Of a stretch of DNA of 64,000 nucleotides, positions 12,865-30,605 are shown piece by piece. This DNA comes from Burkholderiaceae bacterium (GTDB lineage: Bacteria > Pseudomonadota > Gammaproteobacteria > Burkholderiales > Burkholderiaceae_D). The notes beneath the pieces are model-generated. The model did not search any database. It was not told the DNA's origin and worked only from the letters and a program-made list of their open reading frames with translations. The DNA lies in assembly GCA_963666295.1 (NCBI GenBank), contig OY762707.1:570726-634725 (forward strand), read 5' to 3'. The translations under genes were made by a program, and so were the position numbers. Numbering within the stretch: the first letter of the stretch is position 1; every line of letters starts with the position of its first letter.

Positions 12865-14377
12865 GGTTATCCTCCGTCATGTCTGCAACTTCATGCCTGA
12901 GCTGGTCGTAACGGTCAGTATTAGCAAGCGGTGCTTCCTTGAGCTTCAAGGTCGTTTCCACGCAAGGCGGCATTGGTGCAGCGTTAAGTCTGGCCAGCAC
13001 ATTGAGAACATGCTCTGCGCTGAGCACGCCGGATTCAAGCACGAGTTCTACTGCCACCAATACTGAACCCAGACCTGCTGTTGGCACTGCCGAAAGTACT
13101 TGCGCCATAAGCCGATCACCGCCTTCACGGCGCATCAAGCCAAACTTGAGTTGCTTGAGTGACGCAGGCATGTCTGCAAAGGGTGCGCCATTCCTCAGTG
13201 CGCCGGGCTTGCGCTCAAGGAGCGGGATGTAGTGCTGCCAGTCGTAACAAACCTGCCCACGCTCAAACAGCCGCTCATGGCTGGCAACGACAGCATCGTG
13301 CGCCACCACATTGATTCGATCAGGATAAATGCGCACACTGACCATCTGGCCGGACAACTCGCATGGCACGGAGTAGCGGTTGCGTAGTACGGATACCAAG
13401 CAGGTGCTTGATACTCGGGCCGGCTTTTCTACATAACCGTCAAAAGCGGTCGGCATCGGCATCATGTCGCTGCGCTCTTGTTCCAGTATTTCGGCAATGG
13501 AGAATGTCTTATGCTCTGGATGGCGCAGTTCACCCCATAATGCCTTGCACTTGTCTGCCAGCCAGACGTTGAGTTCTGCAAAGGAGCCAAACTTCCGATC
13601 CCGCGCTTCTAGCCAGATTCGCCTGCGGCTGTCCTGGACATTCTTCTCGACAACGCCTTTCTCCCAACCTGAAGCCACATTGCAAAAGTCAGGATCGAAC
13701 AGGTAGTGGCCGCACATGACGGCAAAGCGTGCGTTAACCACGCGCCCCTTGCCTTTGTTGACCTTGTCGACCGCTGTCTTCATGTTGTCGTATATCCCGC
13801 GTCGCGGAATGCCGCCTAGAGCAGCGAAAGCGCGGGTATGCGCATCAAACAGCATTTCGTGCCCTTGGCTCGGATAGGCGACCAGCCAAAAGGCACGACT
13901 GGCGCAGAGCTTGAGGTGCGCAACTTGTATCCGGCGATATATCCCGCCAATCACCAGTCCTTCTTCGCTCCAGTCGAATTGAAATGCTTCGCCGAATCCG
14001 AACGTGAGCGGCACGAACGCCGTGTGCGCCTTGCCTTCGATTTCTTTCCAATCGCGTATAAAGGCAGTGAGCTGGCTATATCCGCCTTCATAGCCTTCAG
14101 CCCTGATTTGTGCAAACAGCGCTTTGGCGGTGCGTCGGTTTTGTTTGGAACGGTGAAGATCGGCTTGAAGTGCCTGCCTGATCGTGGCGTGATACGGGGA
14201 AAGCTTGCTGACTTTCTTGTCCCTGACGTACTTCGGTTGTTTAACAACTTCAGGCTTCCTGAGCCACTTGCGTACCGTGTTACGCGACAGCCCAGTGCGC
14301 TTGGCAATGGCGTGCAGCGACATCTCGTCGCGAAAATACATCCTTCTTATCTTGCTCAAAATTTCCATGGTGATCAC
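12857..14377 (-). CDS. istA: IS21-family transposase IstA
   Basis: 506 aa. N-terminal HTH, DDE core, typical IstA. Overlaps istB by 8 nt. Confidence 0.9.
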
Positions 14378-14818: not shown

Positions 14819-15091
14819 CTAATCTTCCATCTGTTCCAGATTTTCCTGCTGTAGACCAGCAAGCCAAGCAGCAACTTCGCTAGAAAAAGCAAATTTTCCT
14901 TTTCTTCTAGGCAGCTCAAACACTCTCACAGGCAGCACACCTCGTTTTGATGCCTGACGAAATGCAGCAGCGGATTTGTAACCCAAACATCGCACGAGAT
15001 CGCTTCCACTAATCAGTGGGCCAAACTGCTCAACAAGTTCATACGCGTTTACCCAGGAACTATCCGTACTCCGCTGTTTATTCCGTTCCAT
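14819..15091 (-). CDS. small putative DNA-binding protein (PrtN/excisionase-like), low confidence
   Basis: 90 aa. Resembles PrtN/AlpA-type small regulators only loosely (LPVRVFELPRRKGKFAFSSEVAAWL). No SD seen. Confidence 0.35.
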   Translation of the reverse strand: MERNKQRSTDSSWVNAYELVEQFGPLISGSDLVRCLGYKSAAAFRQASKRGVLPVRVFELPRRKGKFAFSSEVAAWLAGLQQENLEQMED

Positions 15092-15210
15092 ATATTCAGT
15101 CGTAAATTGTTATTAGTAGTAGTTGTGCGCTGTCACGCTCAGTTCATTTATAGTTCTAATTATTCGCAATCAGTAAACCCAACGCCACCCGTCACGAAAT
15201 AATTAATTTC

Positions 15211-16146
15211 ATGTCTTCTGAAATAAACCGTAGAAAAAGCCAAGCAGGTCGCCCACCAACGACAACAGCTGACACGATAAAAACATTGGCGTGGATACGA
15301 TGCATTAAGCTGCAATCAGGAAAAAACCCATACCAATTAGGCGTGGAATTCCACCCTCAGCATTACCGATATGATGTCGGGAAATATCAAAGTTCTAAGC
15401 GCTGGGAGAGATATGCAAACGGTGACAGCAACCCTCCTGACCCGAAAACAGGCAGTTCTTTGATTGATATAGTTGAGCGCGCATACCCAGGAACAGCCCG
15501 TATTTTCAGGCATACCTTGTGGATAGCACTACGTGGCAAAATAAAAGACAGCGCGGAAATTTCAAGGCTGCTGTTAACTCTGGATCGGAGTGTGATTGAT
15601 ATATGTTTTGTGCCAGAAATTGGGCGGAATAAAGCAACGTTAAAACGCACTCCTTATGACTACGGGATGCCAACGAGGCTTTCCTATTTGAAGTCTACAG
15701 ATTGCCTAGCAGCACTTCTGTTATTGGGCAAAGAAGCCGAGCTAACAGGAAACAGTAGGTCGCATGCTCAAATTTTCCACATGGTTTATGAAACCCTGTC
15801 TTATGTGAGGCATCTTCCTGAAATACAGCCTGTATTAAAAGAAATAGTCGATTGCATAAATGGCTCACTTCAATCACATCGCTACCATCTAAGTGATGGC
15901 ATCGTCGTGCCAGCACCAGTGTTCACAGTGGAGGCTATATCGAATGATAGTGAACGCACTTGGCCCAGAGACGAGAACACACATTTGCAGCACAAACTGT
16001 ATGAAAAACTTTCAAATCTTTTTAGCTCGACTGAAACTTTTAGAACTTGGTTATTTACTCATCACCCACTACTTGGTGAATCACCCCATGCTGCCATGGA
16101 GCACCCCCAAGGACTGAGGGCGATTCAAGCCCTTCTTTCTGAATAA
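15211..16146 (+). CDS. hypothetical protein with DUF2384/ParS-MbcA-like C-terminal segment
   Basis: 311 aa in AT-rich DNA. The C-terminus, FRTWLFTHHPLLGESPHAAMEHPQGLRAIQALL, resembles the Xre/MbcA/ParS antitoxin toxin-binding domain pattern (W...pLgg.sP...l....G...v...L). Confidence 0.5.
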   Translation: MSSEINRRKSQAGRPPTTTADTIKTLAWIRCIKLQSGKNPYQLGVEFHPQHYRYDVGKYQSSKRWERYANGDSNPPDPKTGSSLIDIVERAYPGTARIFRHTLWIALRGKIKDSAEISRLLLTLDRSVIDICFVPEIGRNKATLKRTPYDYGMPTRLSYLKSTDCLAALLLLGKEAELTGNSRSHAQIFHMVYETLSYVRHLPEIQPVLKEIVDCINGSLQSHRYHLSDGIVVPAPVFTVEAISNDSERTWPRDENTHLQHKLYEKLSNLFSSTETFRTWLFTHHPLLGESPHAAMEHPQGLRAIQALLSE

Positions 16147-16210
16147 GAAGAATGGACATTTGCATAAAGTTAGCCACTTCCTCGTGCGCTCATTGACTGC
16201 AACTCGGTCA

Positions 16211-17836
16211 GACTGTGTGAAAACACATTGATCGTGAAGCGCGAAGTGCTTGGTCCAGTCAGATTCAGCAGAAATTATAGGTCAGGATTATGAAAAAAAG
16301 CGGCCATCATGCCGCCATGGCCTCCATTAGTCTGGAAACTCCCATGATTTTCATGACTCGCTTCATGTTATAGGCCAAAACGTGCAAACTCATCTCAGTT
16401 CCTGCACCTTCTAGCCGCCTGGTTAGAAAGTGATTTGCTCCCATCCACTCTTTTATGGTGCCGAAGGGGTGTTCAACGGTGCGTTGCCTAATACGCATAA
16501 GCCCCGGATTCAGGTCGAGCCGCCTTTGCATCGCCTCAAGGGTTGATTCGTGGTCATAACGACTAACGCGACGATTTTTGCTGGTCGTGCATTTGTCGCG
16601 AATTTCGCAACTGGGGCACTCAGAACTCCAGTATTTATGAATTAATCCGCCACGTTCCTCCGTGGAGAACCGCCAAATCAACCGTTTGCCAGCAGGGCAT
16701 TTGTACTCACCAGCATTTGCATCGAAGATGAAGTCTTCCTTGTCAAAGCGCCCGTCAGCTTTCGCGCTGGATGTCGTCGACTTGGAAACAAGAGGCGTAA
16801 TTCCGTTTTGTTCACAGGCGACGATCTCTTCACCGTTGAAGTAACCGCGATCTGCAATAGCGTGCAAATCATTGGCTGCCATGGCAACCTTGGCTTGCAT
16901 TGCCATCTTGGATAACTGTCGACGGTCGCTGCCACTATTGGTAACTTCATGAGCCACTATCAGGTGGTGGGTTGTATCGACCGCAGTTTGAACGTTGTAA
17001 CCCACCAGGCCTCGACTTGTACTGGTGGCCATGGCGCGAGCGTCTGGATCAGTCAGGGAAATCTGTTTCCCTGGCACCTCTTCCAGATGTTCCTGAATCT
17101 GTTTGAACTTCTCCATCTGCGCCTTCATGGTCTTGATCTTCTCATTGAGGCGAGAGGTTCTTGCTTCGGCAATATCAGACTCTTGGCGATCTGCGGTATC
17201 GAGTTCACCCATGTAACGATCAATGCACTGGTCAATTTGCGCAAGGCGCTTGGCAACCTTGCCTCGCGTGAAATTGCGGTTATGCGCATTAACAGCTCTG
17301 AACTTGCAGCCATCGATTGCCACGACTGCGTTCGCAAACAAGCCGATTTCGCGGCAGAGAAACACAAACTGTCGGCACGCATTGCGAATTCCCGCTCCGT
17401 TATTCTTGCGAAAATCTGCAATTGTCTTGAAGTCAGGTGCCAGCCGATTAACCAGCCACATCAGTTCAAGATTGCGCTGTGCTTCGCGCTCAAGACGTCG
17501 CGTGGAATGGACACGATTTAGGTATCCGTAGATGTATATCTTCAGCAGTACCGATGGATGATAGGATGGCCGTCCCGTTTGCGCGGGGTTTACTCCGTCA
17601 AAGCCAAGTGACGCCAGATCGAGTGAATCAACAAATGCGTCTACTGCACGTACAGGATTGTCTTCAGTGACGAAATCATCAATTGATTCCGGAAGCAAAG
17701 TGACCTGACTACGATCTGCACCTTCTACAAATCTTTTCATGCCGCCTCCTGATAATAGCTACCACTATTATCCTAGAAGGATAGGCTCATCACACTCCAT
17801 TTTCACCTGTTTAAAACAGCGTTTTCACACAGCCAC
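16211..17836 (-). mobile_element. IS1182-family (IS5-like) insertion sequence, copy 1
   Basis: 1626 bp. Terminal IR core is CTGTGTGAAAAC at both ends. Flanked by the 6-bp direct repeat CGGTCA (16205-16210 and 17837-17842). The ends I compared are identical to copy 2. Boundaries +/-2 bp. Confidence 0.85.
16307..17740 (-). CDS. IS1182-family DDE transposase
   Basis: 477 aa. N-terminal MKRFVEGADRSQVTLLPESIDDFVTEDNPVR is typical for IS1182/IS5-like transposases. Protein is identical to the 28975..30408 product. Confidence 0.9.
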   Translation of the reverse strand: MKRFVEGADRSQVTLLPESIDDFVTEDNPVRAVDAFVDSLDLASLGFDGVNPAQTGRPSYHPSVLLKIYIYGYLNRVHSTRRLEREAQRNLELMWLVNRLAPDFKTIADFRKNNGAGIRNACRQFVFLCREIGLFANAVVAIDGCKFRAVNAHNRNFTRGKVAKRLAQIDQCIDRYMGELDTADRQESDIAEARTSRLNEKIKTMKAQMEKFKQIQEHLEEVPGKQISLTDPDARAMATSTSRGLVGYNVQTAVDTTHHLIVAHEVTNSGSDRRQLSKMAMQAKVAMAANDLHAIADRGYFNGEEIVACEQNGITPLVSKSTTSSAKADGRFDKEDFIFDANAGEYKCPAGKRLIWRFSTEERGGLIHKYWSSECPSCEIRDKCTTSKNRRVSRYDHESTLEAMQRRLDLNPGLMRIRQRTVEHPFGTIKEWMGANHFLTRRLEGAGTEMSLHVLAYNMKRVMKIMGVSRLMEAMAA

Positions 17837-18129
17837 CGGTCAAAGCAGCCTTTGGACTTGGCTACCGTGACCGGCAAAGTCCGCCCCAAAGCTGTCACAC
17901 ATGCAGAGTAGCACTAAAATCGCTCTTAGATTACGGTCGCCCAGAAGATCCTCAATTCAGACAATGTTCAAAAGAAACCCGAGCCAAAAACGAGCAAACA
18001 CCCAAAAATTAAGAAAACAGCTGATGCCTTAACTGCTGGTATGAATGCGTATTCAAATTCAATATCGAACAAACGGGAAACCAAAGACACCCCCTGTGCC
18101 TAGACAGCTTGGCTTACATTGCTGTGAAT

Positions 18130-18158
18130 AAAAAAAAGCCCACCCCGAAGGGTGGGCA
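18130..18158 (-). terminator. rho-independent terminator closing the minus-strand cassette
   Basis: On the minus strand, GCCCACCC-TTCG-GGGTGGGC followed by TTTTTTTT, 70 nt downstream of the 531-aa gene stop. Confidence 0.65.
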
Positions 18159-18227
18159 AAATAACAACACACGAAGGTCCAGCCTCTCCTGGTGTCACGC
18201 CAAGAAGCCCGGCGTCCGGCATTTACG

Positions 18228-19823
18228 TCAACCCTCTTTCTGCTTCAGTTGGCCAACACTAATATCTAGACGAACAAGATGTCTTTCAATTTCGGCAGTC
18301 ATTTTGTCTGCGATGTCGATGATGTTGTCCGCACCTGATCGGATAGTTCTTGACTTGGTCCTGATGTCGTCCAGCCGGCTTACTTGTTTTTCAATCTGGC
18401 GAATGCTTTCTTCCATTTCATCAGTATTGACCGGCAATTCTTCTGCTTCTCGCACGCGAACTGAAATCGCTTTGGCGATTGAAATCGCACTTTGCAAAAC
18501 AATGTCAGTACTTTCGTCTTCCGCATCCCAGATAATCATGATGTCACGCCCGAATCGACTGATAGTCTCTAGATTGGCTGGAGCAGTACGCTTAGAGTGA
18601 ACGAATATGCCAATTTCTGCGAGACGATTCTTGCGTGCACTTTCGATTTCATCGAGACTTGCTTTAATGTTATAGGTCTGGTCTTCCTTGAATTCGACGA
18701 CAATTCTCGCTCCCGCTGCCGCACTATCTGGACTCAGAGTGATCACACTGTCGCCAACCTTTGCTCTTCCCACTGCCCCCGTTGTATGAGCCACAAATTC
18801 TGCAAAGTCTCCTGCTCTCATTGACATTCGTTCTATGACCTCAAAACCCTGTCTTTCAAAGTCCAAGCCATGGAGCGTTGAACGGGCAGCCTCTTCCTTG
18901 CGGATATTCATGGCATCCAGAGTTCGTCTAACCTCTTCTCGAAATGAACGATTGTCTTCTCCCTGCTTTTCAAGCACGCTGATCATTTCCCTGCGCAATC
19001 TCGCAAGAGCCGAGTTCTCTGCATCTAGCGAGAACTCCGTGCTTAGGTTCTTCTGTGTTTGTTCAACCTGACGTACCAAACGACTGAGTGCAGAGTCGTC
19101 GCTGTCTAGCGAGAACTCCTCAATCACTGTGCCAATTCTTTTGGAAAGACTTTCGGTTAAGTTTCCGTGCTTTTCAGTCAGTTCATTCAGCAAGCGCGTG
19201 AGAGCGCCCTCCTTATTATCGAGAGAAAACTCGCGCAACACTGCATCTGAACGCGTCTGGACGACTGTCTCAACACGCTCGCGCAACCCCTTTAGCAACT
19301 GGTTATCTTCTGTCGGCAGCAGAAGCTGGAGAAGTGGGCTGCCACTTCCTATGTGGTCCGTTAAGGCTTCATTCAATGTCTGGCGCGTTTGCCCGATCTG
19401 ATCGCGCATTACTTTTTCCAGTTCACCGTCGTTCTTGACTAGGCGATCAACACGCTCTGTAAAGCGTCCATCTTTTGGATCAAAATATTCCTTGAGCGTG
19501 GCAGAGATGCTTGATTCAGTCACCTGTTGAAAATGTCCAAGCTTTGCTGCCAATTCACTTAAAAGTCGCTCGCCTTCATTGCGAACTTTTTCGCTATCCA
19601 CAACACCCTGGGCCTGGCGCAAAGAAAGCACTCCGATGCGCAGGGCTTGCCGGATAAATTCGTCCCGTTGTCTACCTTGTGGGTAACTGATTAGTGCTGC
19701 CGCACTTTCAGGGTCAGTAATTTCGAGTTCAACCCTAATGCCGGACGTGGGTTCGGCATCATGATTTTGGGAGTTTTCAATGATCGTAGGAGCTACTGTG
19801 TGAGTCGTTTGCATACTGGACAA
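18228..19823 (-). CDS. repeat-rich coiled-coil protein with C-terminal PD-(D/E)xK-like core (RmuC/DUF2130-like architecture)
   Basis: 531 aa. Strong SD (AGGAGG) before the ATG. Three EFSLD-x3-4-SAL(T/S/A)RL repeats (aa 198-275) and a degenerate fourth at aa 111-129. Candidate nuclease core is GD(357)SV...IVVE(377)FK(379). Confidence 0.6.
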   Translation of the reverse strand: MSSMQTTHTVAPTIIENSQNHDAEPTSGIRVELEITDPESAAALISYPQGRQRDEFIRQALRIGVLSLRQAQGVVDSEKVRNEGERLLSELAAKLGHFQQVTESSISATLKEYFDPKDGRFTERVDRLVKNDGELEKVMRDQIGQTRQTLNEALTDHIGSGSPLLQLLLPTEDNQLLKGLRERVETVVQTRSDAVLREFSLDNKEGALTRLLNELTEKHGNLTESLSKRIGTVIEEFSLDSDDSALSRLVRQVEQTQKNLSTEFSLDAENSALARLRREMISVLEKQGEDNRSFREEVRRTLDAMNIRKEEAARSTLHGLDFERQGFEVIERMSMRAGDFAEFVAHTTGAVGRAKVGDSVITLSPDSAAAGARIVVEFKEDQTYNIKASLDEIESARKNRLAEIGIFVHSKRTAPANLETISRFGRDIMIIWDAEDESTDIVLQSAISIAKAISVRVREAEELPVNTDEMEESIRQIEKQVSRLDDIRTKSRTIRSGADNIIDIADKMTAEIERHLVRLDISVGQLKQKEG

Positions 19824-19873
19824 CCTCCTTGAAATGAGCGGGTTCGCTCAACAGGGTAGATTGTGCAGAAGCT

Positions 19874-19896
19874 TGTGGCTCATATGGTGAGCCACT
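19874..19896. promoter_or_regulatory. 23-bp dyad operator, site B (TGTGGCTCATATGGTGAGCCACT)
   Basis: Lies in the 79-nt gap between the WYL gene stop and the 531-aa gene start. Aligns with sites A and C, sharing the invariant half-site GTGAGCCACT. Confidence 0.6.
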
Positions 19897-19902
19897 AAAA
19901 AT

Positions 19903-20889
19903 TTAGCTGTAAAGAGAAGCGGCTTTCACAAGCCTCTCCTTGACGGACTCACGTAGTGTTGCAGGCCCCAACACTTCCACATCGGGGCCAAAGCGCAAAA
20001 TTTCGAGCATTAGCTCCCTCGGATCGCTATATGGAATCTCCAGCAAATAGCTGCCATCATCAAGTTCAGTGGTTTTCTGTTCAGGATGCCACTGCTCAGC
20101 TCTAACCCATCTGGCTTGAACAGGGGAAAACTTAAGCTTGGCCCATTCACGATCCTTGCCTGAAAAGATGCCAAAATCCGGCCCAAGCATTTCATCCACT
20201 TTTTTAGCTGCTACGCGTTTAGCTGACTTACTAATTTGATGCGCGCTTTCGATAGCGTCTAGTGCGAAAATCCTCATGGCATCAGCTTGGTGGCACCAAG
20301 CAAATAAATACCAGTTTTCCCGATAGTGAACGAGTCGCTGAGGCGAAACGATCCTTTCGCTTCGCTTGTTGCTGCTTCTGGTGAAATACTGCATGGAGAG
20401 TCGAGTCTGCTTAACCGCAGCTTGTGCAACCGTCTCAAAATATTGTGAGTTGATGCGCTTGCTTGCAGAAGCAAGGATGCGTACACGTGATCGAATGTCT
20501 GCTGGATCATCGTTAGCTGCGCTCATTGCCACAGTAATCCGTGCAATCAGTGGTTGTAGATGCTCAGTCAGCAAGCCAGGACCGATATGCCTGGCAAGTT
20601 CGTCAATCATCAGAAGTGCGTAGATTTCTGAGGCGGTAAACCATGTCCTTGGCAACCCCAGTTTGCCTGACGACCACCCTTTGTCTGTCAGCACATATCC
20701 TCTTGGCGATTCGGAATCTCCTCGTTGCCAATCAATTGGAACCTGCATCTGATCTCGCAATAAGGCAAGATCACGTCTAAATTGTGTTCGCGAAATTTCC
20801 AGTTCGGCAAGGAGAGTATCCCGTGGTACGGGATACTTGCTTGACTCCAAAATTGAAATGAGATTGTTTAGGCGAACGAATTGGCTCAT
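19903..20889 (-). CDS. HTH-WYL-domain transcriptional regulator (BrxR/CapW-like)
   Basis: 328 aa. N-terminal wHTH (RDTLLAELEISRTQFRRDLALLRDQ). WYL-domain signature SPQRLVHYRENWYLFAWCHQADAMRIFALDAI. Start overlaps the upstream stop (TAATG). Confidence 0.8.
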   Translation of the reverse strand: MSQFVRLNNLISILESSKYPVPRDTLLAELEISRTQFRRDLALLRDQMQVPIDWQRGDSESPRGYVLTDKGWSSGKLGLPRTWFTASEIYALLMIDELARHIGPGLLTEHLQPLIARITVAMSAANDDPADIRSRVRILASASKRINSQYFETVAQAAVKQTRLSMQYFTRSSNKRSERIVSPQRLVHYRENWYLFAWCHQADAMRIFALDAIESAHQISKSAKRVAAKKVDEMLGPDFGIFSGKDREWAKLKFSPVQARWVRAEQWHPEQKTTELDDGSYLLEIPYSDPRELMLEILRFGPDVEVLGPATLRESVKERLVKAASLYS

Positions 20890-21806
20890 TATTTTTTAGG
20901 CACTCTGTAGTCGAATTCGCGTGGATCAAGATCTTCATCGTTTGGCGCCCACCCCTCTAGGACGAAGACTTCGCCACCTGATGGTTCCCACGTATCGCCG
21001 TTCCGCTGCAACAAGATATTCCGGACAATAAATAGATCGGAACGCCATGCGTTTTCCCTTGCATCTTTTACCTCATTGCGCGTCAGAATCACCGTATCAG
21101 CATTGCCAGTTGATCCTTTTACTTCAACGTGAACAACTAATTCCTTTTTCTGGCAAAGCAGATCGAAGGGTTTACCGTATTCTTCAACGGAGAATTCCTG
21201 ATGAAGATAGTACTCCTTTGCTTTACTTACTGCGTAATTTTCGGTAATTCGCTTTTTTTCTGGATCATCTTGTATACCAGCGCTTCCAGCAGCAACGTTA
21301 CCTGACGACTCCTCCTGAATCTCACTATTTTGAGGAAGATCTAGATAGTCCCTTAATTTGTCTGCCGATGCTTTTGTCAGTTGAAATGGGATGCGAAATG
21401 CTTGGCGATCAATCCCCCCACTCTTATCTAGGTTTGGTTTTTTTCGTTCGCCCTTAGATGTAATCAGATCAAGGTTTTTGGCCACCTCAAGGTCGACCAG
21501 CTTTGCTGCTCTGAATTTATCTATGGCTTGCTTCTCTGCAATGAAGTACAAGTCTTTGTTAATAATATTGGTTCTACCCAATAATTTTTCGGCCTCAACT
21601 TTTAAAACTGGCCCGTCACCTACGACCAGCCTTCCTCCAATATAGAGATTGCCTTTCTTTACTGTAATAACAAATACTTCATCTCCTTTTACAAAGGTCG
21701 AGAACGGCCGCTTATTCTCGCCTGCAATATAGTCGACAGCATCGTCATCAGATTTTGCTCGTTGATCCCAAGTATCGTTATTCCATAGAAATGTATAAGA
21801 AGCCAT
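20889..21806 (-). CDS. hypothetical protein; C-terminal DUF3883-like PD-(D/E)xK module, N-terminal beta-rich domain
   Basis: 305 aa. The C-terminus, KPFD(215)LLCQKKELVVHVE(228)VK(230)GSTG...LTRNEVKDA...DLFIV, matches the D...ExK...NE...ly.V pattern I recall for DUF3883. The N-terminal domain is unassigned. Confidence 0.55.
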   Translation of the reverse strand: MASYTFLWNNDTWDQRAKSDDDAVDYIAGENKRPFSTFVKGDEVFVITVKKGNLYIGGRLVVGDGPVLKVEAEKLLGRTNIINKDLYFIAEKQAIDKFRAAKLVDLEVAKNLDLITSKGERKKPNLDKSGGIDRQAFRIPFQLTKASADKLRDYLDLPQNSEIQEESSGNVAAGSAGIQDDPEKKRITENYAVSKAKEYYLHQEFSVEEYGKPFDLLCQKKELVVHVEVKGSTGNADTVILTRNEVKDARENAWRSDLFIVRNILLQRNGDTWEPSGGEVFVLEGWAPNDEDLDPREFDYRVPKK

Positions 21807-21807
21807 C

Positions 21808-24800
21808 TTAATCCTTTGACTGTTTAGAAATTATGGAGAAATGATTTAATGTGTTAATCAAGTGAATGTCTTCAGGTGTGTCGGCTCTGGCATCAAGCAA
21901 CCTTTCTGTTCCTAAAACCAAAGACATACATCGAGCCCTTGATACAGCGACATTGAATCTATTCTTGCTAAATAAAAACCCAAGGTTACGAGGCATCAGT
22001 GAATCATTAGATGTAGTCATTGAAACAATCACGACCTGCGCCTCCTGTCCCTGAAATTTGTCGACAGTTCCTACGCGTGCTCCCTTAGGCAAGGTGCGTT
22101 TAAGCAGGTTCACCTGCATGTTGTATGGTGCAACGATGAGAATGTCTTCTAAAGTCATAGGATGGACAACACCTTTTCCATCACGATAGCTCTGGGTAAG
22201 CAAGTTATCTACTAGTTCGCTAACATCTGCCGCTTCTTCTTCGCTTCGCTGTGAGCACGCATCGTGATCGACCGGGACATAGCGAATTCCCGTTGGTTTC
22301 AGCGCCGGGTGTGCACCATCGTTTAGAACTAAAGCTTGTTTAAATGTCGATTCGTCTGACTTCAGCCGCGAGTCATATATGGCACCAGAAATAAACTGGC
22401 AGACGTCCGGATGCATTCGGTACGTGGTCGCAAGGAAAATTCCGCGATCAGGTGAAATCGTTGCTTCGCCATCAAGCAGATAATCAAGAGCCGACTCACC
22501 ACTTCGACCAGGATGAACTCCTTGGATTGGCTGCCCTAACTGCATCTGGTCACCTAACAAAACAAGGTTACGAGAACACATCCCCATCGCTATGGTGTTT
22601 GCAAGCGATACCTGTCCAGCTTCATCAATGAACAAGTAATCGTATTCACCCCTAAAGTCTCCCCTTGCCAAAAGCCATGCCGTTCCAGCTAGCAATTGAG
22701 GCGGTGGGTCTGCTTTGGCTATTGACTGACTGCTTCCCCAGTTCTCTATAAAATCGCTTTCAACGTGATGCTCATCTGTCGACACCTTCTTGATGCCGTA
22801 GTAGCTGGCACCTTTCTCTTTCATTCGCTTGTCGACAGCGCTTAGAAGGTTGTTGATCGCTTTATGGCTATTTGAAGATACGGCCACGCGCTTGCCAGAC
22901 TTCAGAAGTTCGGCAATCAAGTGCGATCCCGTATAGGTTTTGCCTGTTCCCGGAGGACCTTGGATGAACAGGTAGGTATTCTGCATCTTTTCTACAGCAG
23001 AAATTGTTTGTGCAAGCGGATCACCATCGAGGTCAACAATGGGTTCTCCTGAATTGATTCCTTCAATATCAGGCGCTTTTCTCGTGAGGTAATCCAATAC
23101 AGCTTTGTATTGCCCACTGCCGGCAATTAGGGAATCTGCAAAATCAAATAGTGCATCTTGCATTACCGTTGAATTTATCGGTGCACCTGTTGAGATTGAA
23201 AATGACCCTGACTCGTCCCCCGAATCAGTCCGTATTTCCAAGGTGACGGTGCAGTTATCCTCATCAATATCTACTACGTTCACATCCTTCAGAGTATCCA
23301 GGCGCTTCGCATACCCACCGGCCTTCACCTTAAAATCCTGCTCCGGATAGTGATAACGAAATACCTCGAAACGCTTGCCAGACCCGACATACTCAGGGGA
23401 ATGAAGGCCAGCAATAACTTCCGGATCTTCAATCAACTCTTCAAACTCACCATCTTGGCGTTCGAAGATATTCCACCATGCTGGTTTGGCAGCACGCCGG
23501 TAAAAATCCAATAGTGAGTCGACCAGTTTAGCCAGTTCTTCATCAAGCCCAAGGTTGACTGGGCTAGTGATCAATTTCTCATGGTATTCCTCGAGAGTTT
23601 TTTCGTGATCAAGCGTTTTGTCGGATTTTGTCTTTGCTGGCTTTTTAGCTGCTACGGCGTCAATAATGGCTTCTGAAAACCACGACAATTCTTCCGGCCT
23701 CATCGTCAGTAGCCATTCTCGCAACTGCCATGTCGAGCGACAGTCGTCCTCGTTATACTCCCGTATGGACTCAAGCAATTCTGGATCTTGTGTTTCACGC
23801 CAGCGCTCATAAACCACGATGCTATCTCCAGCATTTGTGACCTCTGCATCCCGCTTATCGCTGTAAAAGGCCTCGACGGCTTTTATTGAATAGCTAGGCT
23901 TTGAAATGCGTAAGCCCTCACGCACTACTTTGTATAAATCTACTAAACGACTTTCACGTAATAATTGATCAACTGCTGACTCTTTGACCCCATGCAAAGT
24001 CATTAACTTCTTCAAAGCCGTATTCTCATAATGAGCGTAGTGATAGATATGCATGGCAGGATACTTCTCCCTGCGATCCATCACGAAATCCATAAATTCG
24101 ATGAAAGCTTGGCGTTCCTGCTCTCGATCATGCGCCCAGAAGGGCTTGAATACTGGCTTTCCTGCATCGAAGTAGTACACACCGAATAGATATTCCAATC
24201 CACCGTCCTGCATTGGATCGCCTTCCATATCGAAGAACAGATCACCTGCATCCGGTTTGGGGAGTCTCGCAAACCCGCGCATTTCGTCTTCGTGAACAGG
24301 CAAAAGAACTACCTTTTGCTCGCCAGTCTCACGCTCATGAACCTGGAGCTTTGCTTGTTCGCGTAATTTCGTGAGTGTCTGATCCGCCAGCTTGGGCACG
24401 TCCATGTTTTCTTGTAGTTGTGCGAGCTGAGCAACCGTTTTGATGTCAGCCTGCTCCAACCTTGCGATCTGCTGGCGTGTGATATTGGCTACCGCTGACA
24501 AATGGTCATCTTCGATCCGTTTTGCGTCGCACCTTTCTTGCCAATGACAAAGTGAGCAATGGTCGCAAGGTACTGGATACGGTGGAGTGCCATCCGGGTA
24601 GGTTCCCAAAAATTCGACGAACCGGTCCAGAAGCTGCCTGTAGTAATACACGTAGTCAGCGACTCTGAAACTTTCACGCTTTCCGTTCCCCAGTTCGACA
24701 TGCATGTTTGGTGGGAGTTTTTCTGTCAGGTCAGACAACAGATCGGAATAAAAACAAAGCTGGAGAATGAATTTAGCCTTGGTCGAGCGTGCAAGCTTGG

Positions 24801-25197
24801 TATCTGCAACCTCATATTCCCATGCCTCTCCCTCATCATTACTGTCTGTGCGCAGGAGAAAATCAGCATTTCCAAGCATATTGCCGCGCTTCAAGGCGGC
24901 CTGATAGACAACCTTGGCACCGGTTTTCAGGGCGTCACTGGTTGCGCTGACACGCTGGTCAAGAGATAGTTTTTGGTCTATCTCAATGCAATCTTCGTAT
25001 TGGGTTTTTAGTTGCGCAAAAAACTCCGCTTCGTGCTCAAAGCCCTTTGCCTGAACCAGCTTGGATTGCTCATCATCCTCGGCTTTTTCCATTGGTGAGT
25101 CGAGGTGGAGGCGATCAAGCCATGTCCTGTGTGGGCATTCAGCGAAAAAGGTCAGGTCGCTTGCGGAAAACAGAATCTGGTTATTTATTTTTTGCAA
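21808..25197 (-). CDS. Cas4/RecB-like Fe-S nuclease + PolB-like (RNase_H_2) 3'-5' exonuclease + Upf1/DNA2-like SF1B helicase fusion (TM0106-family-like)
   Basis: 1129 aa. TTG start 6 nt after GGAGGTGA. Nuclease: C21, D112 (NADFLL), D132-T-K134, QLCFY, then C211-x2-C-x2-C-x5-C. Exonuclease: DLFFDMEGDP and EYNEDDC. Helicase: GPPGTGKT (K753), FIDEAGQ, LLGDQMQL, TTYRMHP, DKFQGQEAQVVIVS, FNVAVSRAR. Confidence 0.85.
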   Translation of the reverse strand: MQKINNQILFSASDLTFFAECPHRTWLDRLHLDSPMEKAEDDEQSKLVQAKGFEHEAEFFAQLKTQYEDCIEIDQKLSLDQRVSATSDALKTGAKVVYQAALKRGNMLGNADFLLRTDSNDEGEAWEYEVADTKLARSTKAKFILQLCFYSDLLSDLTEKLPPNMHVELGNGKRESFRVADYVYYYRQLLDRFVEFLGTYPDGTPPYPVPCDHCSLCHWQERCDAKRIEDDHLSAVANITRQQIARLEQADIKTVAQLAQLQENMDVPKLADQTLTKLREQAKLQVHERETGEQKVVLLPVHEDEMRGFARLPKPDAGDLFFDMEGDPMQDGGLEYLFGVYYFDAGKPVFKPFWAHDREQERQAFIEFMDFVMDRREKYPAMHIYHYAHYENTALKKLMTLHGVKESAVDQLLRESRLVDLYKVVREGLRISKPSYSIKAVEAFYSDKRDAEVTNAGDSIVVYERWRETQDPELLESIREYNEDDCRSTWQLREWLLTMRPEELSWFSEAIIDAVAAKKPAKTKSDKTLDHEKTLEEYHEKLITSPVNLGLDEELAKLVDSLLDFYRRAAKPAWWNIFERQDGEFEELIEDPEVIAGLHSPEYVGSGKRFEVFRYHYPEQDFKVKAGGYAKRLDTLKDVNVVDIDEDNCTVTLEIRTDSGDESGSFSISTGAPINSTVMQDALFDFADSLIAGSGQYKAVLDYLTRKAPDIEGINSGEPIVDLDGDPLAQTISAVEKMQNTYLFIQGPPGTGKTYTGSHLIAELLKSGKRVAVSSNSHKAINNLLSAVDKRMKEKGASYYGIKKVSTDEHHVESDFIENWGSSQSIAKADPPPQLLAGTAWLLARGDFRGEYDYLFIDEAGQVSLANTIAMGMCSRNLVLLGDQMQLGQPIQGVHPGRSGESALDYLLDGEATISPDRGIFLATTYRMHPDVCQFISGAIYDSRLKSDESTFKQALVLNDGAHPALKPTGIRYVPVDHDACSQRSEEEAADVSELVDNLLTQSYRDGKGVVHPMTLEDILIVAPYNMQVNLLKRTLPKGARVGTVDKFQGQEAQVVIVSMTTSNDSLMPRNLGFLFSKNRFNVAVSRARCMSLVLGTERLLDARADTPEDIHLINTLNHFSIISKQSKD

Positions 25198-25263
25198 AGA
25201 TCACCTCCAAAGGTTTGGGAAGTATAGCGCTTATTTCTGCTAAAAACGGAACTTATCACCATA

Positions 25264-25286
25264 AGTGGTTCACATAGTGAGCCACT
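25264..25286. promoter_or_regulatory. 23-bp dyad operator, site A (AGTGGTTCACATAGTGAGCCACT)
   Basis: 67 nt upstream of the helicase-fusion start, in the divergent intergenic region. Nearly perfect 10-3-10 inverted repeat. Confidence 0.6.
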
Positions 25287-25315
25287 AAAAAAACAATTTC
25301 CAAAAATATATATTT

Positions 25316-25338
25316 AGAGGCTCATTCCGTGAGCCACT
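25316..25338. promoter_or_regulatory. 23-bp dyad operator, site C (AGAGGCTCATTCCGTGAGCCACT)
   Basis: Same intergenic region, 48 nt upstream of the ATG at 25387. Shares GTGAGCCACT and the GGCTCAT left arm with site B. Confidence 0.5.
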
Positions 25339-25386
25339 TACTTATTTATAGTCACATCATGTGAACAAAATATGGAGGTGAATTCA

Positions 25387-25665
25387 ATGAGCCAATTAAC
25401 CCAGCATGCCATGACCCGTATGCAGCAGCGCGGCATAAAAGAGCTAACGCTTCAACACCTGTTGCAGCATGGCGCAAAGACTCATGATGGCAGGGGATGC
25501 CAAATTGTTTATTTCAACAAGCAATCGCGAAAACGCCTACAAAAAAGCTTTTGCAATGAGGCATTCAAGCAACTTGAGAAGCAAATGGATGCTTATGCCG
25601 TAATTTCTGAGTTTGGCGATGTTGTCACAGTAGGCCACCGAACCAAGCGTATCAACCGTTACTAA
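25387..25665 (+). CDS. DUF4258-like small protein (putative toxin-type)
   Basis: LTQHAMTRMQQRGIKELTLQHLLQHG fits the DUF4258 pattern (HA..RM..RgI). GGAGGTG lies 6 nt before ATG 25387. The ORF-track start at 25372 sits inside that SD. Confidence 0.5.
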   Translation: MSQLTQHAMTRMQQRGIKELTLQHLLQHGAKTHDGRGCQIVYFNKQSRKRLQKSFCNEAFKQLEKQMDAYAVISEFGDVVTVGHRTKRINRY

Positions 25666-25674
25666 GGAGACTCC

Positions 25675-26190
25675 ATGGCGCTATTACTAGAAGGAATGAC
25701 TCTGGTATTTGAAAATGAAACACTTGAAGAGATGCACCCACTTGGCATCAAGGGATTCATATCGGAATGGAACAACGGGTCTTTCTGTACGGACGGCACG
25801 ATATCTAAATTGTCCTTTTTTGAATTTCAGGACGGATTTTGCGTACTTGCAGCCATGAAGGGTATGGGGTTGGCCATATCCACACGATACGCAGCCGATG
25901 TAGCTGTGTTTATGCATGATGGCAGCCCATGGTTACCCTGCTTGTGGCTAGAAACTGAAAAACACGTCGAAAATTACATGATGTGCTGGCATGTAACAAA
26001 CAAAGGGAGCAAAGCATTGGCTCCAGCATATTTCAAGAGAGGTGGCACATTAGCGCGCTTCCAAGGACTAACCATGGACGAGATAAACGATCGTATTTCT
26101 AGGGCGGGCGTCGAAAATGGATGCAGCATTTTCAAAGACGAAATATCTGGTCGAATTCTGTACGGTCCGAATCAACTCTGCAGACATTAA
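25675..26190 (+). CDS. hypothetical protein (possible partner of the DUF4258-like gene)
   Basis: 171 aa. AGGAG SD. Starts 10 nt after the upstream stop. No family recognised. Confidence 0.5.
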   Translation: MALLLEGMTLVFENETLEEMHPLGIKGFISEWNNGSFCTDGTISKLSFFEFQDGFCVLAAMKGMGLAISTRYAADVAVFMHDGSPWLPCLWLETEKHVENYMMCWHVTNKGSKALAPAYFKRGGTLARFQGLTMDEINDRISRAGVENGCSIFKDEISGRILYGPNQLCRH

Positions 26191-26581: not shown

Positions 26582-27148
26582 ATGCCCACGCAACTCTTAA
26601 CTACAGTCGCGCCATATTTCAGGCCATATATTGACCTCTTGAAATTGTCTGGAGAGCGCTACTACTTCAGGAAAGCGTCGACCTCCCTCCGGGATGCTGA
26701 CGGTCAGCGCCGAAATTGGCATCCGAAGATCGCTCACGTAATGCTTCGGGGATACCACTTGCCAACCGAGGGCATCTTGTATGCGGCCTTTCCAAAGGTA
26801 GTCAACGTCAGCAATCTTGGAGACGACGACCTTCTTTACATAGGTTGCTCGGCTACGGGTGGCTCTAGATATTGGCGCGGACGACCGAGCGAAACCGGTC
26901 GCTACCCCGAAAGCAAGTCTTGCTTTCATCATGAACAAATGCGTCGAGGCAGAGACTCACACAATCTAGAAAACTATCTTACTCAAATTGGTTCGGTTCG
27001 CGTGTATACACTGACGGACAGAGAAGTTCTGTCTCTCTGTTCCAAGCATCAGGTCACGTTACCTGAAGGAAGATATCCGGCACACCAACTCGAAAAAAAA
27101 ATCCTGTCTGAAGGATTTTTAAGATGGAAGTGGAATCGGCGTGTCTGA
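26582..27148 (+). CDS. hypothetical protein, possible GIY-YIG-like nuclease fold (weak)
   Basis: 188 aa. GILYAAF...LLYIGCSATGGSRYWRGR loosely resembles the GIY-x10-YIG-...-R motif. No SD seen. Confidence 0.35.
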   Translation: MPTQLLTTVAPYFRPYIDLLKLSGERYYFRKASTSLRDADGQRRNWHPKIAHVMLRGYHLPTEGILYAAFPKVVNVSNLGDDDLLYIGCSATGGSRYWRGRPSETGRYPESKSCFHHEQMRRGRDSHNLENYLTQIGSVRVYTLTDREVLSLCSKHQVTLPEGRYPAHQLEKKILSEGFLRWKWNRRV

Positions 27149-28741: not shown

Positions 28742-28878
28742 GTTGAGGAATTAAATTGTTATGGTCGAAAGTTTGCATATTAGCATTGTCGAATGAGAAG
28801 AAAATCCAGATCTGAACGACAGCTTCATTGCTGGGTTAAGGCGGTGATGGTTGCCAAGGTAAAGGTCTGCTTTGGCCG

Positions 28879-30504
28879 GTGGCTGTGTGAAAACGCTGTT
28901 TTAAACAGGTGAAAATGGAGTGTGATGAGCCTATCCTTCTAGGATAATAGTGGTAGCTATTATCAGGAGGCGGCATGAAAAGATTTGTAGAAGGTGCAGA
29001 TCGTAGTCAGGTCACTTTGCTTCCGGAATCAATTGATGATTTCGTCACTGAAGACAATCCTGTACGTGCAGTAGACGCATTTGTTGATTCACTCGATCTG
29101 GCGTCACTTGGCTTTGACGGAGTAAACCCCGCGCAAACGGGACGGCCATCCTATCATCCATCGGTACTGCTGAAGATATACATCTACGGATACCTAAATC
29201 GTGTCCATTCCACGCGACGTCTTGAGCGCGAAGCACAGCGCAATCTTGAACTGATGTGGCTGGTTAATCGGCTGGCACCTGACTTCAAGACAATTGCAGA
29301 TTTTCGCAAGAATAACGGAGCGGGAATTCGCAATGCGTGCCGACAGTTTGTGTTTCTCTGCCGCGAAATCGGCTTGTTTGCGAACGCAGTCGTGGCAATC
29401 GATGGCTGCAAGTTCAGAGCTGTTAATGCGCATAACCGCAATTTCACGCGAGGCAAGGTTGCCAAGCGCCTTGCGCAAATTGACCAGTGCATTGATCGTT
29501 ACATGGGTGAACTCGATACCGCAGATCGCCAAGAGTCTGATATTGCCGAAGCAAGAACCTCTCGCCTCAATGAGAAGATCAAGACCATGAAGGCGCAGAT
29601 GGAGAAGTTCAAACAGATTCAGGAACATCTGGAAGAGGTGCCAGGGAAACAGATTTCCCTGACTGATCCAGACGCTCGCGCCATGGCCACCAGTACAAGT
29701 CGAGGCCTGGTGGGTTACAACGTTCAAACTGCGGTCGATACAACCCACCACCTGATAGTGGCTCATGAAGTTACCAATAGTGGCAGCGACCGTCGACAGT
29801 TATCCAAGATGGCAATGCAAGCCAAGGTTGCCATGGCAGCCAATGATTTGCACGCTATTGCAGATCGCGGTTACTTCAACGGTGAAGAGATCGTCGCCTG
29901 TGAACAAAACGGAATTACGCCTCTTGTTTCCAAGTCGACGACATCCAGCGCGAAAGCTGACGGGCGCTTTGACAAGGAAGACTTCATCTTCGATGCAAAT
30001 GCTGGTGAGTACAAATGCCCTGCTGGCAAACGGTTGATTTGGCGGTTCTCCACGGAGGAACGTGGCGGATTAATTCATAAATACTGGAGTTCTGAGTGCC
30101 CCAGTTGCGAAATTCGCGACAAATGCACGACCAGCAAAAATCGTCGCGTTAGTCGTTATGACCACGAATCAACCCTTGAGGCGATGCAAAGGCGGCTCGA
30201 CCTGAATCCGGGGCTTATGCGTATTAGGCAACGCACCGTTGAACACCCCTTCGGCACCATAAAAGAGTGGATGGGAGCAAATCACTTTCTAACCAGGCGG
30301 CTAGAAGGTGCAGGAACTGAGATGAGTTTGCACGTTTTGGCCTATAACATGAAGCGAGTCATGAAAATCATGGGAGTTTCCAGACTAATGGAGGCCATGG
30401 CGGCATGATGGCCGCTTTTTTTCATAATCCTGACCTATAATTTCTGCTGAATCTGACTGGACCAAGCACTTCGCGCTTCACGATCAATGTGTTTTCACAC
30501 AGTC
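28879..30504 (+). mobile_element. IS1182-family insertion sequence, copy 2 (inverted relative to copy 1)
   Basis: 1626 bp, same IR core. Flanked by the 6-bp direct repeat TGGCCG (28873-28878 and 30505-30510). Confidence 0.85.
28975..30408 (+). CDS. IS1182-family DDE transposase
   Basis: 477 aa, identical to the 16307..17740 product. Confidence 0.9.
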   Translation: MKRFVEGADRSQVTLLPESIDDFVTEDNPVRAVDAFVDSLDLASLGFDGVNPAQTGRPSYHPSVLLKIYIYGYLNRVHSTRRLEREAQRNLELMWLVNRLAPDFKTIADFRKNNGAGIRNACRQFVFLCREIGLFANAVVAIDGCKFRAVNAHNRNFTRGKVAKRLAQIDQCIDRYMGELDTADRQESDIAEARTSRLNEKIKTMKAQMEKFKQIQEHLEEVPGKQISLTDPDARAMATSTSRGLVGYNVQTAVDTTHHLIVAHEVTNSGSDRRQLSKMAMQAKVAMAANDLHAIADRGYFNGEEIVACEQNGITPLVSKSTTSSAKADGRFDKEDFIFDANAGEYKCPAGKRLIWRFSTEERGGLIHKYWSSECPSCEIRDKCTTSKNRRVSRYDHESTLEAMQRRLDLNPGLMRIRQRTVEHPFGTIKEWMGANHFLTRRLEGAGTEMSLHVLAYNMKRVMKIMGVSRLMEAMAA

Positions 30505-30605
30505 TGGCCGAGCAGCTGTCGTAAGTCGTATGGCAGGTTTTAGATCATTTCAGATTTATAGTGCGGGTATACAGCGCCACCAAGCTCTCCCATTTTGAAA
30601 AACTA

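Follow-up and report, generated by a model that had tools for sequence, protein, structure and literature searches.

What kind of genetic unit is formed by four co-directional minus-strand genes in an island of a Burkholderiaceae bacterium rich in insertion sequences (IS)? The genes lie in a stretch of 64,000 nucleotides from contig OY762707.1 (assembly GCA_963666295.1), referred to here as the window. The original prediction, made from the letters of this DNA, took them for one four-gene nuclease/helicase cassette at 18130-25338 under a WYL repressor of the BrxR/CapW class, and proposed a candidate anti-phage system. The four genes and their junctions are present where they had been placed; by the coordinates of the open reading frames (ORFs), genes 1 and 2 are joined by TAA-G-ATG and genes 2 and 3 by TAATG. 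The nuclease/helicase content also holds: apart from the regulator, each of the three proteins is a predicted nuclease, in one case fused to a superfamily 1B (SF1B) helicase. What links genes 1 and 4, however, is cis-regulation. The locus is therefore read here, with moderate confidence, as a clustered instance of a horizontally mobile WYL regulon whose inducible nucleases would destroy foreign DNA. Its boundaries should be redrawn to 18130-26190, a regulon instance on an IS-bracketed segment in which three putative WYL-dependent promoters serve six genes.

The WYL box and its promoters

The regulatory sequence is a dyad of 8+5+8 = 21 bp, GTGGCTCA-N5-TGAGCCAC, with the exact core GCTCA-N5-TGAGC. 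A dyad had been noticed earlier and stands, but it had been given as 23 bp long and present in two copies, whereas three copies were found (boxes A, B, and C). With up to three mismatches allowed, the 64 kb contain no further match, and 0.25 would be expected by chance. A pattern with a 4-nt spacer gave zero matches; the actual spacer is 5 nt. Each box is separated by 9 nt from a -10-like hexamer. Box A (19875-19895) with CACAAT (19865-19860) forms the putative promoter of gene 4 (19860-19895, minus strand), and box B (25265-25285) with TAAGTT (25255-25250) that of the gene 1-gene 2-gene 3 operon (25250-25285, minus strand). Box C (25317-25337) with TATAGT (25347-25352) is the putative promoter of a divergent gene pair on the plus strand (25317-25352). 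Shared boxes before gene 1, gene 4, and the divergent pair thus agree with the WYL regulation that had been predicted for the cassette. Gene 4 was nevertheless found to have its own transcription unit, separate from genes 1-3, with which it had been grouped, and the third promoter falls outside the earlier coordinates.

A scan for sigma-70 consensus sequences at the boxes returned no convincing full promoters, which fits promoters without a -35 element. The place for such an element lies within the box, in its 5-nt spacer, which is not conserved.

The same arrangement recurs in other Proteobacteria, in loci fetched around homologs of genes 1 and 4 (designated by L and a number). Exact-core boxes number 12 in 1.30 Mb of gene-4 loci (1.45 expected) and 19 in 0.98 Mb of gene-1 loci (0.55 expected). 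Hexamers of the form nAnnnT follow the box at offset 9 in 35% and at offset 8 in 20% of site-orientations, with other offsets near 5%. Before gene-4 homologs, the box-N9-(-10) arrangement is present in L081, L085, L171, L172, L173, and L174, and the hexamer is clearest in L001, L002, L004, and L006. An exact-core box precedes gene 4 in seven betaproteobacterial loci (L001-L006 and L008). In four of these seven (L002-L005), and in L174, the gene-4 homolog has a box with no WYL gene nearby. Gene-1 homologs have a box close upstream in L081, L091, L093, L097, L117, L125, and L172; in L114 and L119 the box is farther away, at about 500-660 nt. Boxes with a hexamer facing the gene also stand before an RmuC-gene 1 operon (L124), a NOV_C gene (L093), and a WYL-headed Wadjet-like operon (L001). 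As read from these sequences, the box with its fixed promoter geometry is the signature of a regulon rather than of a single operon.

The divergent pair served by box C begins with a small DUF4258-like gene (25372-25665, plus strand), whose Pfam match to DUF4258 (E 2e-4) is below the cut-off. Its likely start is ATG 25387, preceded by the Shine-Dalgarno sequence GGAGG, which gives 92 aa; a gene caller on the identical contig L086 also reports 92 aa. Homologs adjoin gene-1 homologs in eight independent loci, and the neighbor at the same position on plasmid pOM4 is annotated as DUF4258. The second gene of the pair (25675-26190, plus strand) encodes a 171-aa protein that matches no known family in Pfam or PHROGs and is conserved alongside the DUF4258-like gene in L081 (57% identity) and L093 (37%). 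The divergent-strand box and -10 arrangement is likewise found in L081 (TATACT) and L093. In L081 the DUF4258-like gene (4202-4490) is broken across two frames and has probably become a pseudogene.

A PF06189 5'-nucleotidase gene adjoins gene-1 or gene-4 homologs in L081 (11776-12666), L087 (9540-10442), L008 (6560-7525), and L001 (605-1483). It has its own box-N9-(-10) promoter in L008 (box 6529) and L001 (box 528), and is likely another member of the regulon.

The regulator and the predicted nucleases

Gene 3 (19903-20889, minus strand) encodes a 328-aa protein with a canonical NWYL motif. Its Pfam matches to HTH_11 (1e-5), WYL (1e-21), and WCX (2e-19) assign it by sequence to the winged helix-turn-helix (wHTH)-WYL-WCX, or class A WYL, regulators. 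Compared with sequences of the PDB, it is closest to PafBC (4e-19) and PafC (7e-15), followed by BrxR (5e-7), CapW (5e-6), and DriD (2e-5). The regulator had been assigned to the BrxR/CapW-class repressors, which is probably incorrect. CapW and BrxR repressors conserve RWHVR in the WYL position (PMC11662680); in gene 3 and in all orthologs associated with a box, (E/G)NWYL is found there and RWHVR is absent, so that membership in the CapW/BrxR subgroup was rejected on this signature. The box assigned to gene 3, GCTCA-N5-TGAGC, also has a different sequence from the boxes of DriD and DdaA.

The promoter geometry, in turn, is of the DriD/DdaA type, with the peak at offsets 8-9 and all three window promoters conforming. 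At promoters activated by DriD, the box overlies a missing -35 element at a constant distance from the -10 element, and one region is bidirectional (PMC13004042). The DriD probe from didA consists of the box, 8 nt, and CAATCT. The shape of the box alone does not discriminate between an activator and a repressor, because the two sites that BrxR binds in its island are likewise inverted repeats spaced by 5 bp. Because of the promoter geometry, NWYL in place of RWHVR, and PafBC as the closest relative, the balance tips modestly towards gene 3 being an activator triggered by single-stranded DNA (ssDNA), by analogy with DriD and DdaA, rather than a repressor of the BrxR/CapW type. By the same analogy, ssDNA is the expected trigger whether gene 3 activates or represses; WYL repressors likewise respond to ssDNA (PMC11662680, PMC13622015). 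In L089, L090, and L170 (plasmid and metagenome), WYL genes divergent from gene-1 homologs belong to another subfamily, in which RRYLVA replaces NWYL and no GCTCA box is present. At least two regulator lineages have therefore become paired with gene 1.

Gene 1 (21808-25197, minus strand) encodes 1129 aa predicted to combine a Cas4-like iron-sulfur (Fe-S) nuclease, a DEDDy 3'-5' exonuclease of the TM0106 family, and a UPF1/Dna2-like SF1B helicase. Residues 11-496 match TIGR03491 (TM0106 RecB-like nuclease) with 345.5 bits against a cut-off of 97.45, and an RNase_H_2 domain (320-496) lies inside this span. Catalytic motifs had been claimed for genes 1, 2, and 4, and these are invariant or nearly so in alignments of homologs. 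For gene 1, aligned with five homologs of 43-71% identity, the invariant residues comprise four cysteines (C21, C214, C217, and C223; C...CxxCx5C), the RecB/Cas4 residues D112, D132, K134, Q146, and Y150 (D...(D/E)xK plus QxxxY), and the DEDDy exonuclease residues D323, E325, Y481, and D485. Of the Walker A motif GPPGTGKT (747-754), six of eight residues are invariant, including K753. These features place the N-terminus among the Cas4/RecB/Dna2-type Fe-S PD-(D/E)xK nucleases, with the Fe-S cluster predicted from the cysteines. Cas4 models match weakly (E 2e-5 to 6e-4), and a search of PDB sequences found no match for the nuclease part among solved structures. The helicase part, where Pfam places the SF1 domains AAA_11 (1e-12) and AAA_12 (6e-32) at about 730-1100, matches IGHMBP2 (3e-30), Upf1 (1.5e-24), and Dna2 (1e-20) among PDB sequences, as well as Sen1, and by these matches the C-terminus belongs to the UPF1/Dna2-like SF1B helicases. 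Literature searches for TM0106/TIGR03491 nuclease-helicases returned nothing relevant, and a search for PF13482 was uninformative.

Gene 2 (20889-21806, minus strand) encodes 305 aa with a rare N-terminal domain and a predicted C-terminal PD-(D/E)xK nuclease of the NOV_C/DUF3883 type. Residues 193-264 match this family (PF13020) with 35.8 bits (cut-off 22.1). Only the NOV_C part, the C-terminal 42% or so, is conserved among homologs, in which D215, E228, and K230 of the D...ExK core are nearly invariant. In the AlphaFold2 model, residues 181-305 have a model confidence score (pLDDT) above 90, and the best Foldseek matches of this domain are the SPARDA nuclease subunit, Hjc, and EcoRV. The modeled NOV_C domain is thus nuclease-like.

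Gene 4 (18228-19814, minus strand) encodes a helical N-terminal part with repeats and a C-terminal PD-(D/E)xK-like domain. The ORF of 531 aa had been recognized, but a start at ATG 19814, with the Shine-Dalgarno sequence AAGGAGG at 19830-19824, is most likely and gives 528 aa. No model of Pfam, NCBIfam, PADLOC, or PHROGs matches the protein. In the 528-aa numbering, H315, G316, D355, E374, and K376 are invariant and define the family pattern H-G...GD...ExK; E374 and K376 correspond to E377 and K379 in the 531-aa numbering. Three tandem repeats of about 38 residues occupy residues 190-275 or so, and their core, EFSLDxxxSALSRLV, hardly varies; a fourth repeat is present in some members of the family. 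The repeats match no known repeat family, and the region is modeled with low confidence.

The confident part of the AlphaFold2 model of gene 4 is confined to the C-terminal domain (317-460, pLDDT about 88), in which the order of strands and helices is as expected for PD-(D/E)xK. Its best Foldseek matches are McrC, MspJI, EcoT38I, and BamHI, all restriction-type nucleases, with weak E-values of 0.02-0.1. Comparison of structure models, which had been suggested for all four proteins, was therefore informative for the nuclease-like C-terminal domains of genes 2 and 4; their N-terminal parts are poorly modeled (pLDDT below 60) and gave nothing of use. A tblastn search with gene 4 matches an archaeal gene annotated as 'restriction endonuclease', whereas a profile search of PDB sequences with the family returned noise only. 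Fusion partners in longer relatives are uninformative except for one DUF2130 match below threshold. The family comprises more than 1,500 proteins in a word-indexed search and 2,992 clusters at 50% identity in an exhaustive search, 694 of them at E <= 1e-30. On sequence and model grounds, it is predicted to be a large unannotated group of helical-repeat PD-(D/E)xK nucleases. Gene 4 was rejected as a divergent RmuC (PF02646), with no Pfam match and an hhalign probability of 1.5%, although the positional analogy described below is retained.

Gene neighborhoods and mobile context

The order gene 1-X-WYL-gene 4 is kept in five independent contigs (the window, L081, L085, L172, and L173), where L081-L084 are one locus in several samples and the relatives sharing the order have gene 4 at 61-75% identity. 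The slot X, occupied by gene 2 in the window, holds mutually unrelated proteins: NOV_C proteins of two kinds, an HNH_2 protein, and a 267-aa protein without a known family. The slot-2 proteins of the window and L085 have only the NOV_C half in common. Elsewhere, slot 2 carries a different NOV_C protein (L081), the HNH_2 protein (L172), or the 267-aa protein (L173). Another protein of the HNH_2 type, P0125, aligns with roughly half of gene 2 at 52% identity and has no recorded NOV_C domain; we take the match to cover the N-terminal half of gene 2. McrB/McrC pairs occupy the position after gene 1 in five to six loci, including L096, L097, and L100. In L097, the N-terminal 60 or so residues of the McrB-like AAA_5 ATPase after gene 1 (7949-9904) resemble, by eye, the N-terminus of the NOV_C protein P0132; one putative targeting domain may thus be fused to a nuclease (P0132) or to an McrB motor (L097).

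L093 has the order gene 1-WYL-NOV_C. In L171, the WYL gene stands between a separate SF1 helicase and a DUF2779 nuclease, followed by gene 4 and then MksB-MksE-MksF-DUF7281. Further afield, the components separate. Among 80 genome loci seeded on the gene-4 family, a homolog of gene 1 or gene 2 is never adjacent; a WYL gene adjoins gene 4 in L008, lies at a distance of 7 kb in L001, and is represented by a fragment in L006. In 80 metagenomic loci with gene 1 as the seed (39-69% identity), the genes found within 1.5 kb include WYL in about eight, NOV_C in about four, and gene 4 in two. Co-occurrence, which had been proposed as a check, thus holds for genes 1, 3, and 4 as synteny in the five contigs and fails in the 80 gene-4-seeded loci. 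Recurrent neighbors of gene 4 (SDR, DUF1501, HemN-like, TPR, and a 1333-aa protein) were considered as partners and rejected, as they reflect Planctomycete housekeeping synteny. Because the parts can occur separately and the content of slot 2 varies, this is not a fixed four-gene system; of the four-gene unit that had been proposed, the order in five contigs stands, whereas slot 2 is swapped and genes 1 and 4 are mostly apart.

Other nucleases and defense genes share these neighborhoods. The slot immediately upstream of gene 1 is taken by RmuC in L124 and L127 and by gene 4 in L110 and L106. L119 has a third member of the RmuC family, on the opposite strand and some 2 kb upstream of gene 1. 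A DUF2357/PDDEXK_7 protein with an AAA_5 ATPase is found upstream of gene 1 in four loci. Operons of the Wadjet/MksBEFG type, encoding DUF3584 or MksF, MksE, MksB, and DUF7281-Toprim, adjoin gene 4 in L001 (2264-11530), L171 (3266-13419), and L004 (8863-11527). Those of L001 and L171 are headed by a WYL gene and carry a GCTCA-N5-TGAGC box, which suggests control of an anti-plasmid structural maintenance of chromosomes (SMC) system by the WYL box and a possible accessory role for gene 4. RES-Xre toxin-antitoxin pairs occur near such loci. The plasmid collection contains about 60 full-length gene-1 homologs, some beside a divergent WYL gene and others beside repair genes or the PF06189 5'-nucleotidase. 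Gene 4 is absent from both the phage and the plasmid collections. Gene-1 homologs are also absent from the phage collection, and genes 1 and 4 are therefore not phage genes.

The setting of the window is that of a mobile element. Two copies of the same 1679-bp IS, at 16195-17873 and 28842-30520, bracket an 11-kb segment in the manner of a composite transposon. The copies are inverted and 99% complementary; the left one encodes a 477-aa DDE transposase (Pfam DUF772/DDE_Tnp_1), and the transposase ORF of the right one is identical to it. The IS-rich island lies between prfA/prmC and nrdJ/alaS. Its IS copies and its AbiV-, DUF4258-, and deaminase-type neighbors had been correctly described, the window containing an HEPN_AbiV gene and a truncated adenosine deaminase. 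The description of the island as AT-rich was overstated, as GC content is 0.41-0.50 in the segment and about 0.50-0.56 in the flanks. The sister cassette of L081 lies directly downstream of Tn7-like tniB/tniQ (1-2219) and is probably transposon cargo.

Gene 4 is closed by an intrinsic terminator (18130-18158, minus strand), GCCCACCCttcgGGGTGGGC followed by T8, which was confirmed to have an 8-bp stem (18138-18157) with seven GC pairs. An Rfam scan of the window from 10 to 31 kb found no structured RNA. On the left side of the island, a complete IS21 element (12070-14377, minus strand) encodes an istA transposase of 506 aa and an istB helper ATPase of 264 aa. Between it and the left IS copy, the region 14819-16146 encodes a 311-aa protein with a weak C-terminal domain of the Xre/MbcA/ParS antitoxin type, and a divergent 90-aa ORF separates this gene from the IS21 element. 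These genes may be what is left of a toxin-antitoxin or regulatory module. A 188-aa ORF (26582-27148, plus strand) matches nothing in Pfam or PHROGs and, among the fetched loci, matches only the identical contig L086. On the nrdJ side, the NrdJ-like B12-dependent ribonucleotide reductase (30747-34736, minus strand, 1329 aa) matches its models in two pieces, and its middle part, about 297-640, matches models of intein-containing DnaB and GyrA; the split match and the intein-type middle part indicate that the gene probably carries an intein.

Proposed mechanism, alternatives, and relation to known systems

A working model can be proposed for the locus. A gene 3 dimer would recognize the 21-bp box at the three promoters. 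By analogy with DriD, DdaA, and PafBC, ssDNA arising from phage or plasmid replication or from DNA damage would bind the WYL domain, and the ssDNA-bound regulator would recruit RNA polymerase, so that the genes are switched on only under attack or damage. The SF1B helicase of gene 1 would move 5'->3' along ssDNA, and the Fe-S Cas4-like nuclease and the DEDDy exonuclease of the same protein would meanwhile degrade the DNA. The slot-2 nuclease, with its variable N-terminal domain, probably supplies target recognition or a second cut, and the helical-repeat nuclease of gene 4 would fill the slots that RmuC fills elsewhere. Together, the gene products would destroy replicating foreign DNA; their activities, targets, and protective effect are what we infer from the domains and their context. 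Because the modules are separable and exchangeable, they would form a co-regulated toolkit rather than an obligate four-protein complex.

More tentatively, the window may represent an undescribed mobile WYL-activator regulon of Proteobacteria, marked by GCTCA-N5-TGAGC 8-9 nt before the -10 element, in which an ssDNA signal calls up interchangeable DNA-destroying modules. These modules would comprise the Dna2-like nuclease-helicase, the slot-2 nuclease, the gene-4 family, RmuC, the 5'-nucleotidase, and Wadjet/Mks. Three elements appear to be undescribed, namely the box, the composition of the regulon, and the family of gene 4, whereas WYL-controlled, ssDNA-inducible gene sets and nuclease-helicase effectors appear to be kinds already known.

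Several observations weigh against a mobile defense regulon driven by an activator. No PADLOC family covers the gene set, and most gene-1 homologs have no WYL gene or box nearby. In Planctomycetes, gene-4 homologs lie in housekeeping synteny without a box, and the gene 4-gene 1 pair of L110 has an ordinary chromosomal context, again without a box. The choice between activation and repression is drawn from promoter geometry and motifs, with which a repressor occluding the -35 region would also be compatible. Gene 3 lies inside its own target operon, which would create positive feedback if it is an activator, whereas DriD is not autoregulated (PMC13004042). Finally, several gene-1 homologs are found beside DinB, error-prone polymerase, AlkB, SRAP, and SbcCD-like genes. 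On Novosphingobium pSA2, a WYL-gene 1 pair adjoins SRAP, AlkB, DinB, and error-prone polymerase genes; on pOM4, such a pair adjoins SbcCD-like genes; and DinB lies near gene 1 in four loci. These repair neighbors fit a DNA-damage regulon, in which a WYL activator senses ssDNA from damage and induces a Dna2-like resection enzyme and nucleases that act on breaks or stalled forks, or that kill damaged cells as BapE does. The promoter architecture and the WYL motif are those of activators that control damage responses (PMC13004042, PMC12392091, PMC13010146), and DriD induces the nucleases BapE and RecJ. RmuC, which is associated with recombination, uses the same slot as gene 4, and gene 4 is a stable chromosomal gene in Planctomycetes. 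Such a regulon is possible but doubtful given the hypervariable slot 2 with its swapped nuclease domains, the association with McrBC-like, Wadjet/Mks, RES-Xre, and AbiV genes, the carriage on IS, Tn7, and plasmid elements, and the patchy distribution. Within the 64 kb, no housekeeping gene has a box before it. DdaA serves both damage response and defense (PMC12392091), and the two readings are therefore not exclusive. Defense against foreign DNA is considered more likely than repair, a preference that draws on the swapping of slot-2 nucleases, on the McrBC-like, RmuC, Wadjet/Mks, RES-Xre, and AbiV associations, on the IS composite and Tn7-like contexts, and on the published parallel of CnuH-CnuE in CoCoNuT systems.

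The system as first proposed, a single obligate four-gene unit against phages whose BrxR/CapW-class repressor is released on infection, would account for the gene order kept in five contigs and for the translational coupling of genes 1-3. The two BrxR sites with 5-bp-spacer repeats and the response of WYL repressors to ssDNA, cited above, would also suit it. It is unlikely because RWHVR is absent and PafBC is a closer relative of gene 3 than either BrxR or CapW, because the boxes replace the -35 element at a fixed spacing, and because the components are separable around an unconserved slot 2. Gene 4 and the DUF4258-like pair, moreover, have promoters of their own, and the same box stands before unrelated operons elsewhere. 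An accidental juxtaposition of unrelated genes that share neither function nor regulation could be imagined in an island pieced together from IS21, IS copies, a deaminase remnant, and AbiV, but it is highly improbable: the box and its fixed promoter geometry are conserved across many taxa, the synteny recurs, and the box statistics contradict it.

If the mobile WYL regulon is real, an activator-type circuit would be added to the regulation of mobile defense, which has so far been described mainly as repressor-based (BrxR, CapW, and the ddmDE regulator), with DdaA as a chromosomal exception. Transposons would then carry a second line of immunity that is induced through an activator, unlike the repressor-controlled systems of BrxR and CapW. 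Searches with box-N9-(-10) as bait would list candidate effectors induced by damage or infection, and a first functional handle would be gained on the gene-4 family and the TM0106 nuclease-helicases. The swapping of slot 2 between NOV_C, HNH, McrBC, and unassigned proteins would then be a natural experiment on the retargeting of a helicase-nuclease core. If the locus is a repair regulon instead, SOS-independent WYL damage responses would extend to mobile elements of Gamma- and Betaproteobacteria.

The view that the gene set is unlike any named system held up: the hidden Markov models of PADLOC-DB v2.0.0, run against all proteins, gave no system match and only generic helicase, Cas4, WYL, and TmtA C-terminal matches. 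Individual systems were also considered and rejected. The PADLOC model of Nhi is marginal (E 0.0099) and covers only residues 737-807 of gene 1. Matches to MkoA and MkoC of Mokosh are confined to the C-terminal half of the helicase (849-1110), and the PLD domain is absent from all four proteins. Type II/III CoCoNuT systems were set aside on domain content: SmpB-like, RelE-like, OB, and coiled-coil inserts were not detected in gene 1, and the window lacks McrBC and TerY-P.

The closest regulatory parallels are drawn with DriD (Caulobacter) and DdaA (Acinetobacter/Moraxellaceae), both of them wHTH-WYL-WCX activators that act as homodimers and are triggered by ssDNA. Gene 3 has the same domain architecture, although its similarity to DriD is weak (E 2e-5). 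As in these systems, a palindromic box with a CA-N5-TG center lies over a missing -35 position, and one promoter region is bidirectional. The DriD and DdaA regulons include nucleases, as here, and DdaA also controls CRISPR-Cas and restriction-modification genes. The box differs, however, being GCTCA-N5-TGAGC rather than CGWCA-N5-TGWCG (DdaA) or CGAC-N7-GTCG (DriD). Also unlike DriD and DdaA, gene 3 lies inside its target operon on a mobile element, and its putative targets are nucleases borne by mobile genetic elements rather than recA, ssb, or uvrA. With BrxR and CapW, which respond to ssDNA, gene 3 shares the wHTH-WYL-WCX architecture, inverted repeats with a 5-bp spacer at more than one site of the island, and a defense-island context. 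It departs from them in the absence of RWHVR, in its closer sequence relationship to PafBC, and in a promoter geometry typical of activators.

Among the effectors, gene 1 resembles Nhi and eukaryotic Dna2 in joining an N-terminal PD-(D/E)xK nuclease to a UPF1/Dna2-like SF1B helicase in one polypeptide, and the Dna2 nuclease contains an Fe-S cluster, as predicted for gene 1. Unlike Nhi and Dna2, gene 1 has an additional DEDDy exonuclease domain and belongs to TIGR03491. In CoCoNuT systems (CnuH-CnuE(-CnuBC)), a UPF1-like SF1 helicase is followed by a gene in which a variable N-terminal domain is fused to interchangeable nuclease effectors, often overlapping with McrB/McrC (PMC11090510). Gene 1 is similarly followed by NOV_C, HNH, or unassigned proteins, or by McrB/McrC, but its predicted nucleases are of DNA type, whereas CoCoNuT systems are predicted to target RNA. 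Gene 4 is comparable to RmuC, and to the RmuC-domain nuclease of Shield, in its long helical N-terminal part, its putative C-terminal PD-(D/E)xK domain, and its slot immediately upstream of gene 1. Unlike RmuC, it carries EFSLDxxxSALSRLV repeats. The DdmD and DdmE proteins of Vibrio cholerae differ from those encoded here, and according to the published description their WYL regulator is a repressor and groups with BrxR and CapW. Nevertheless, the locus would share with DdmDE an overall design in which an ssDNA-responsive WYL regulator controls a helicase-nuclease and a partner that act on foreign DNA.

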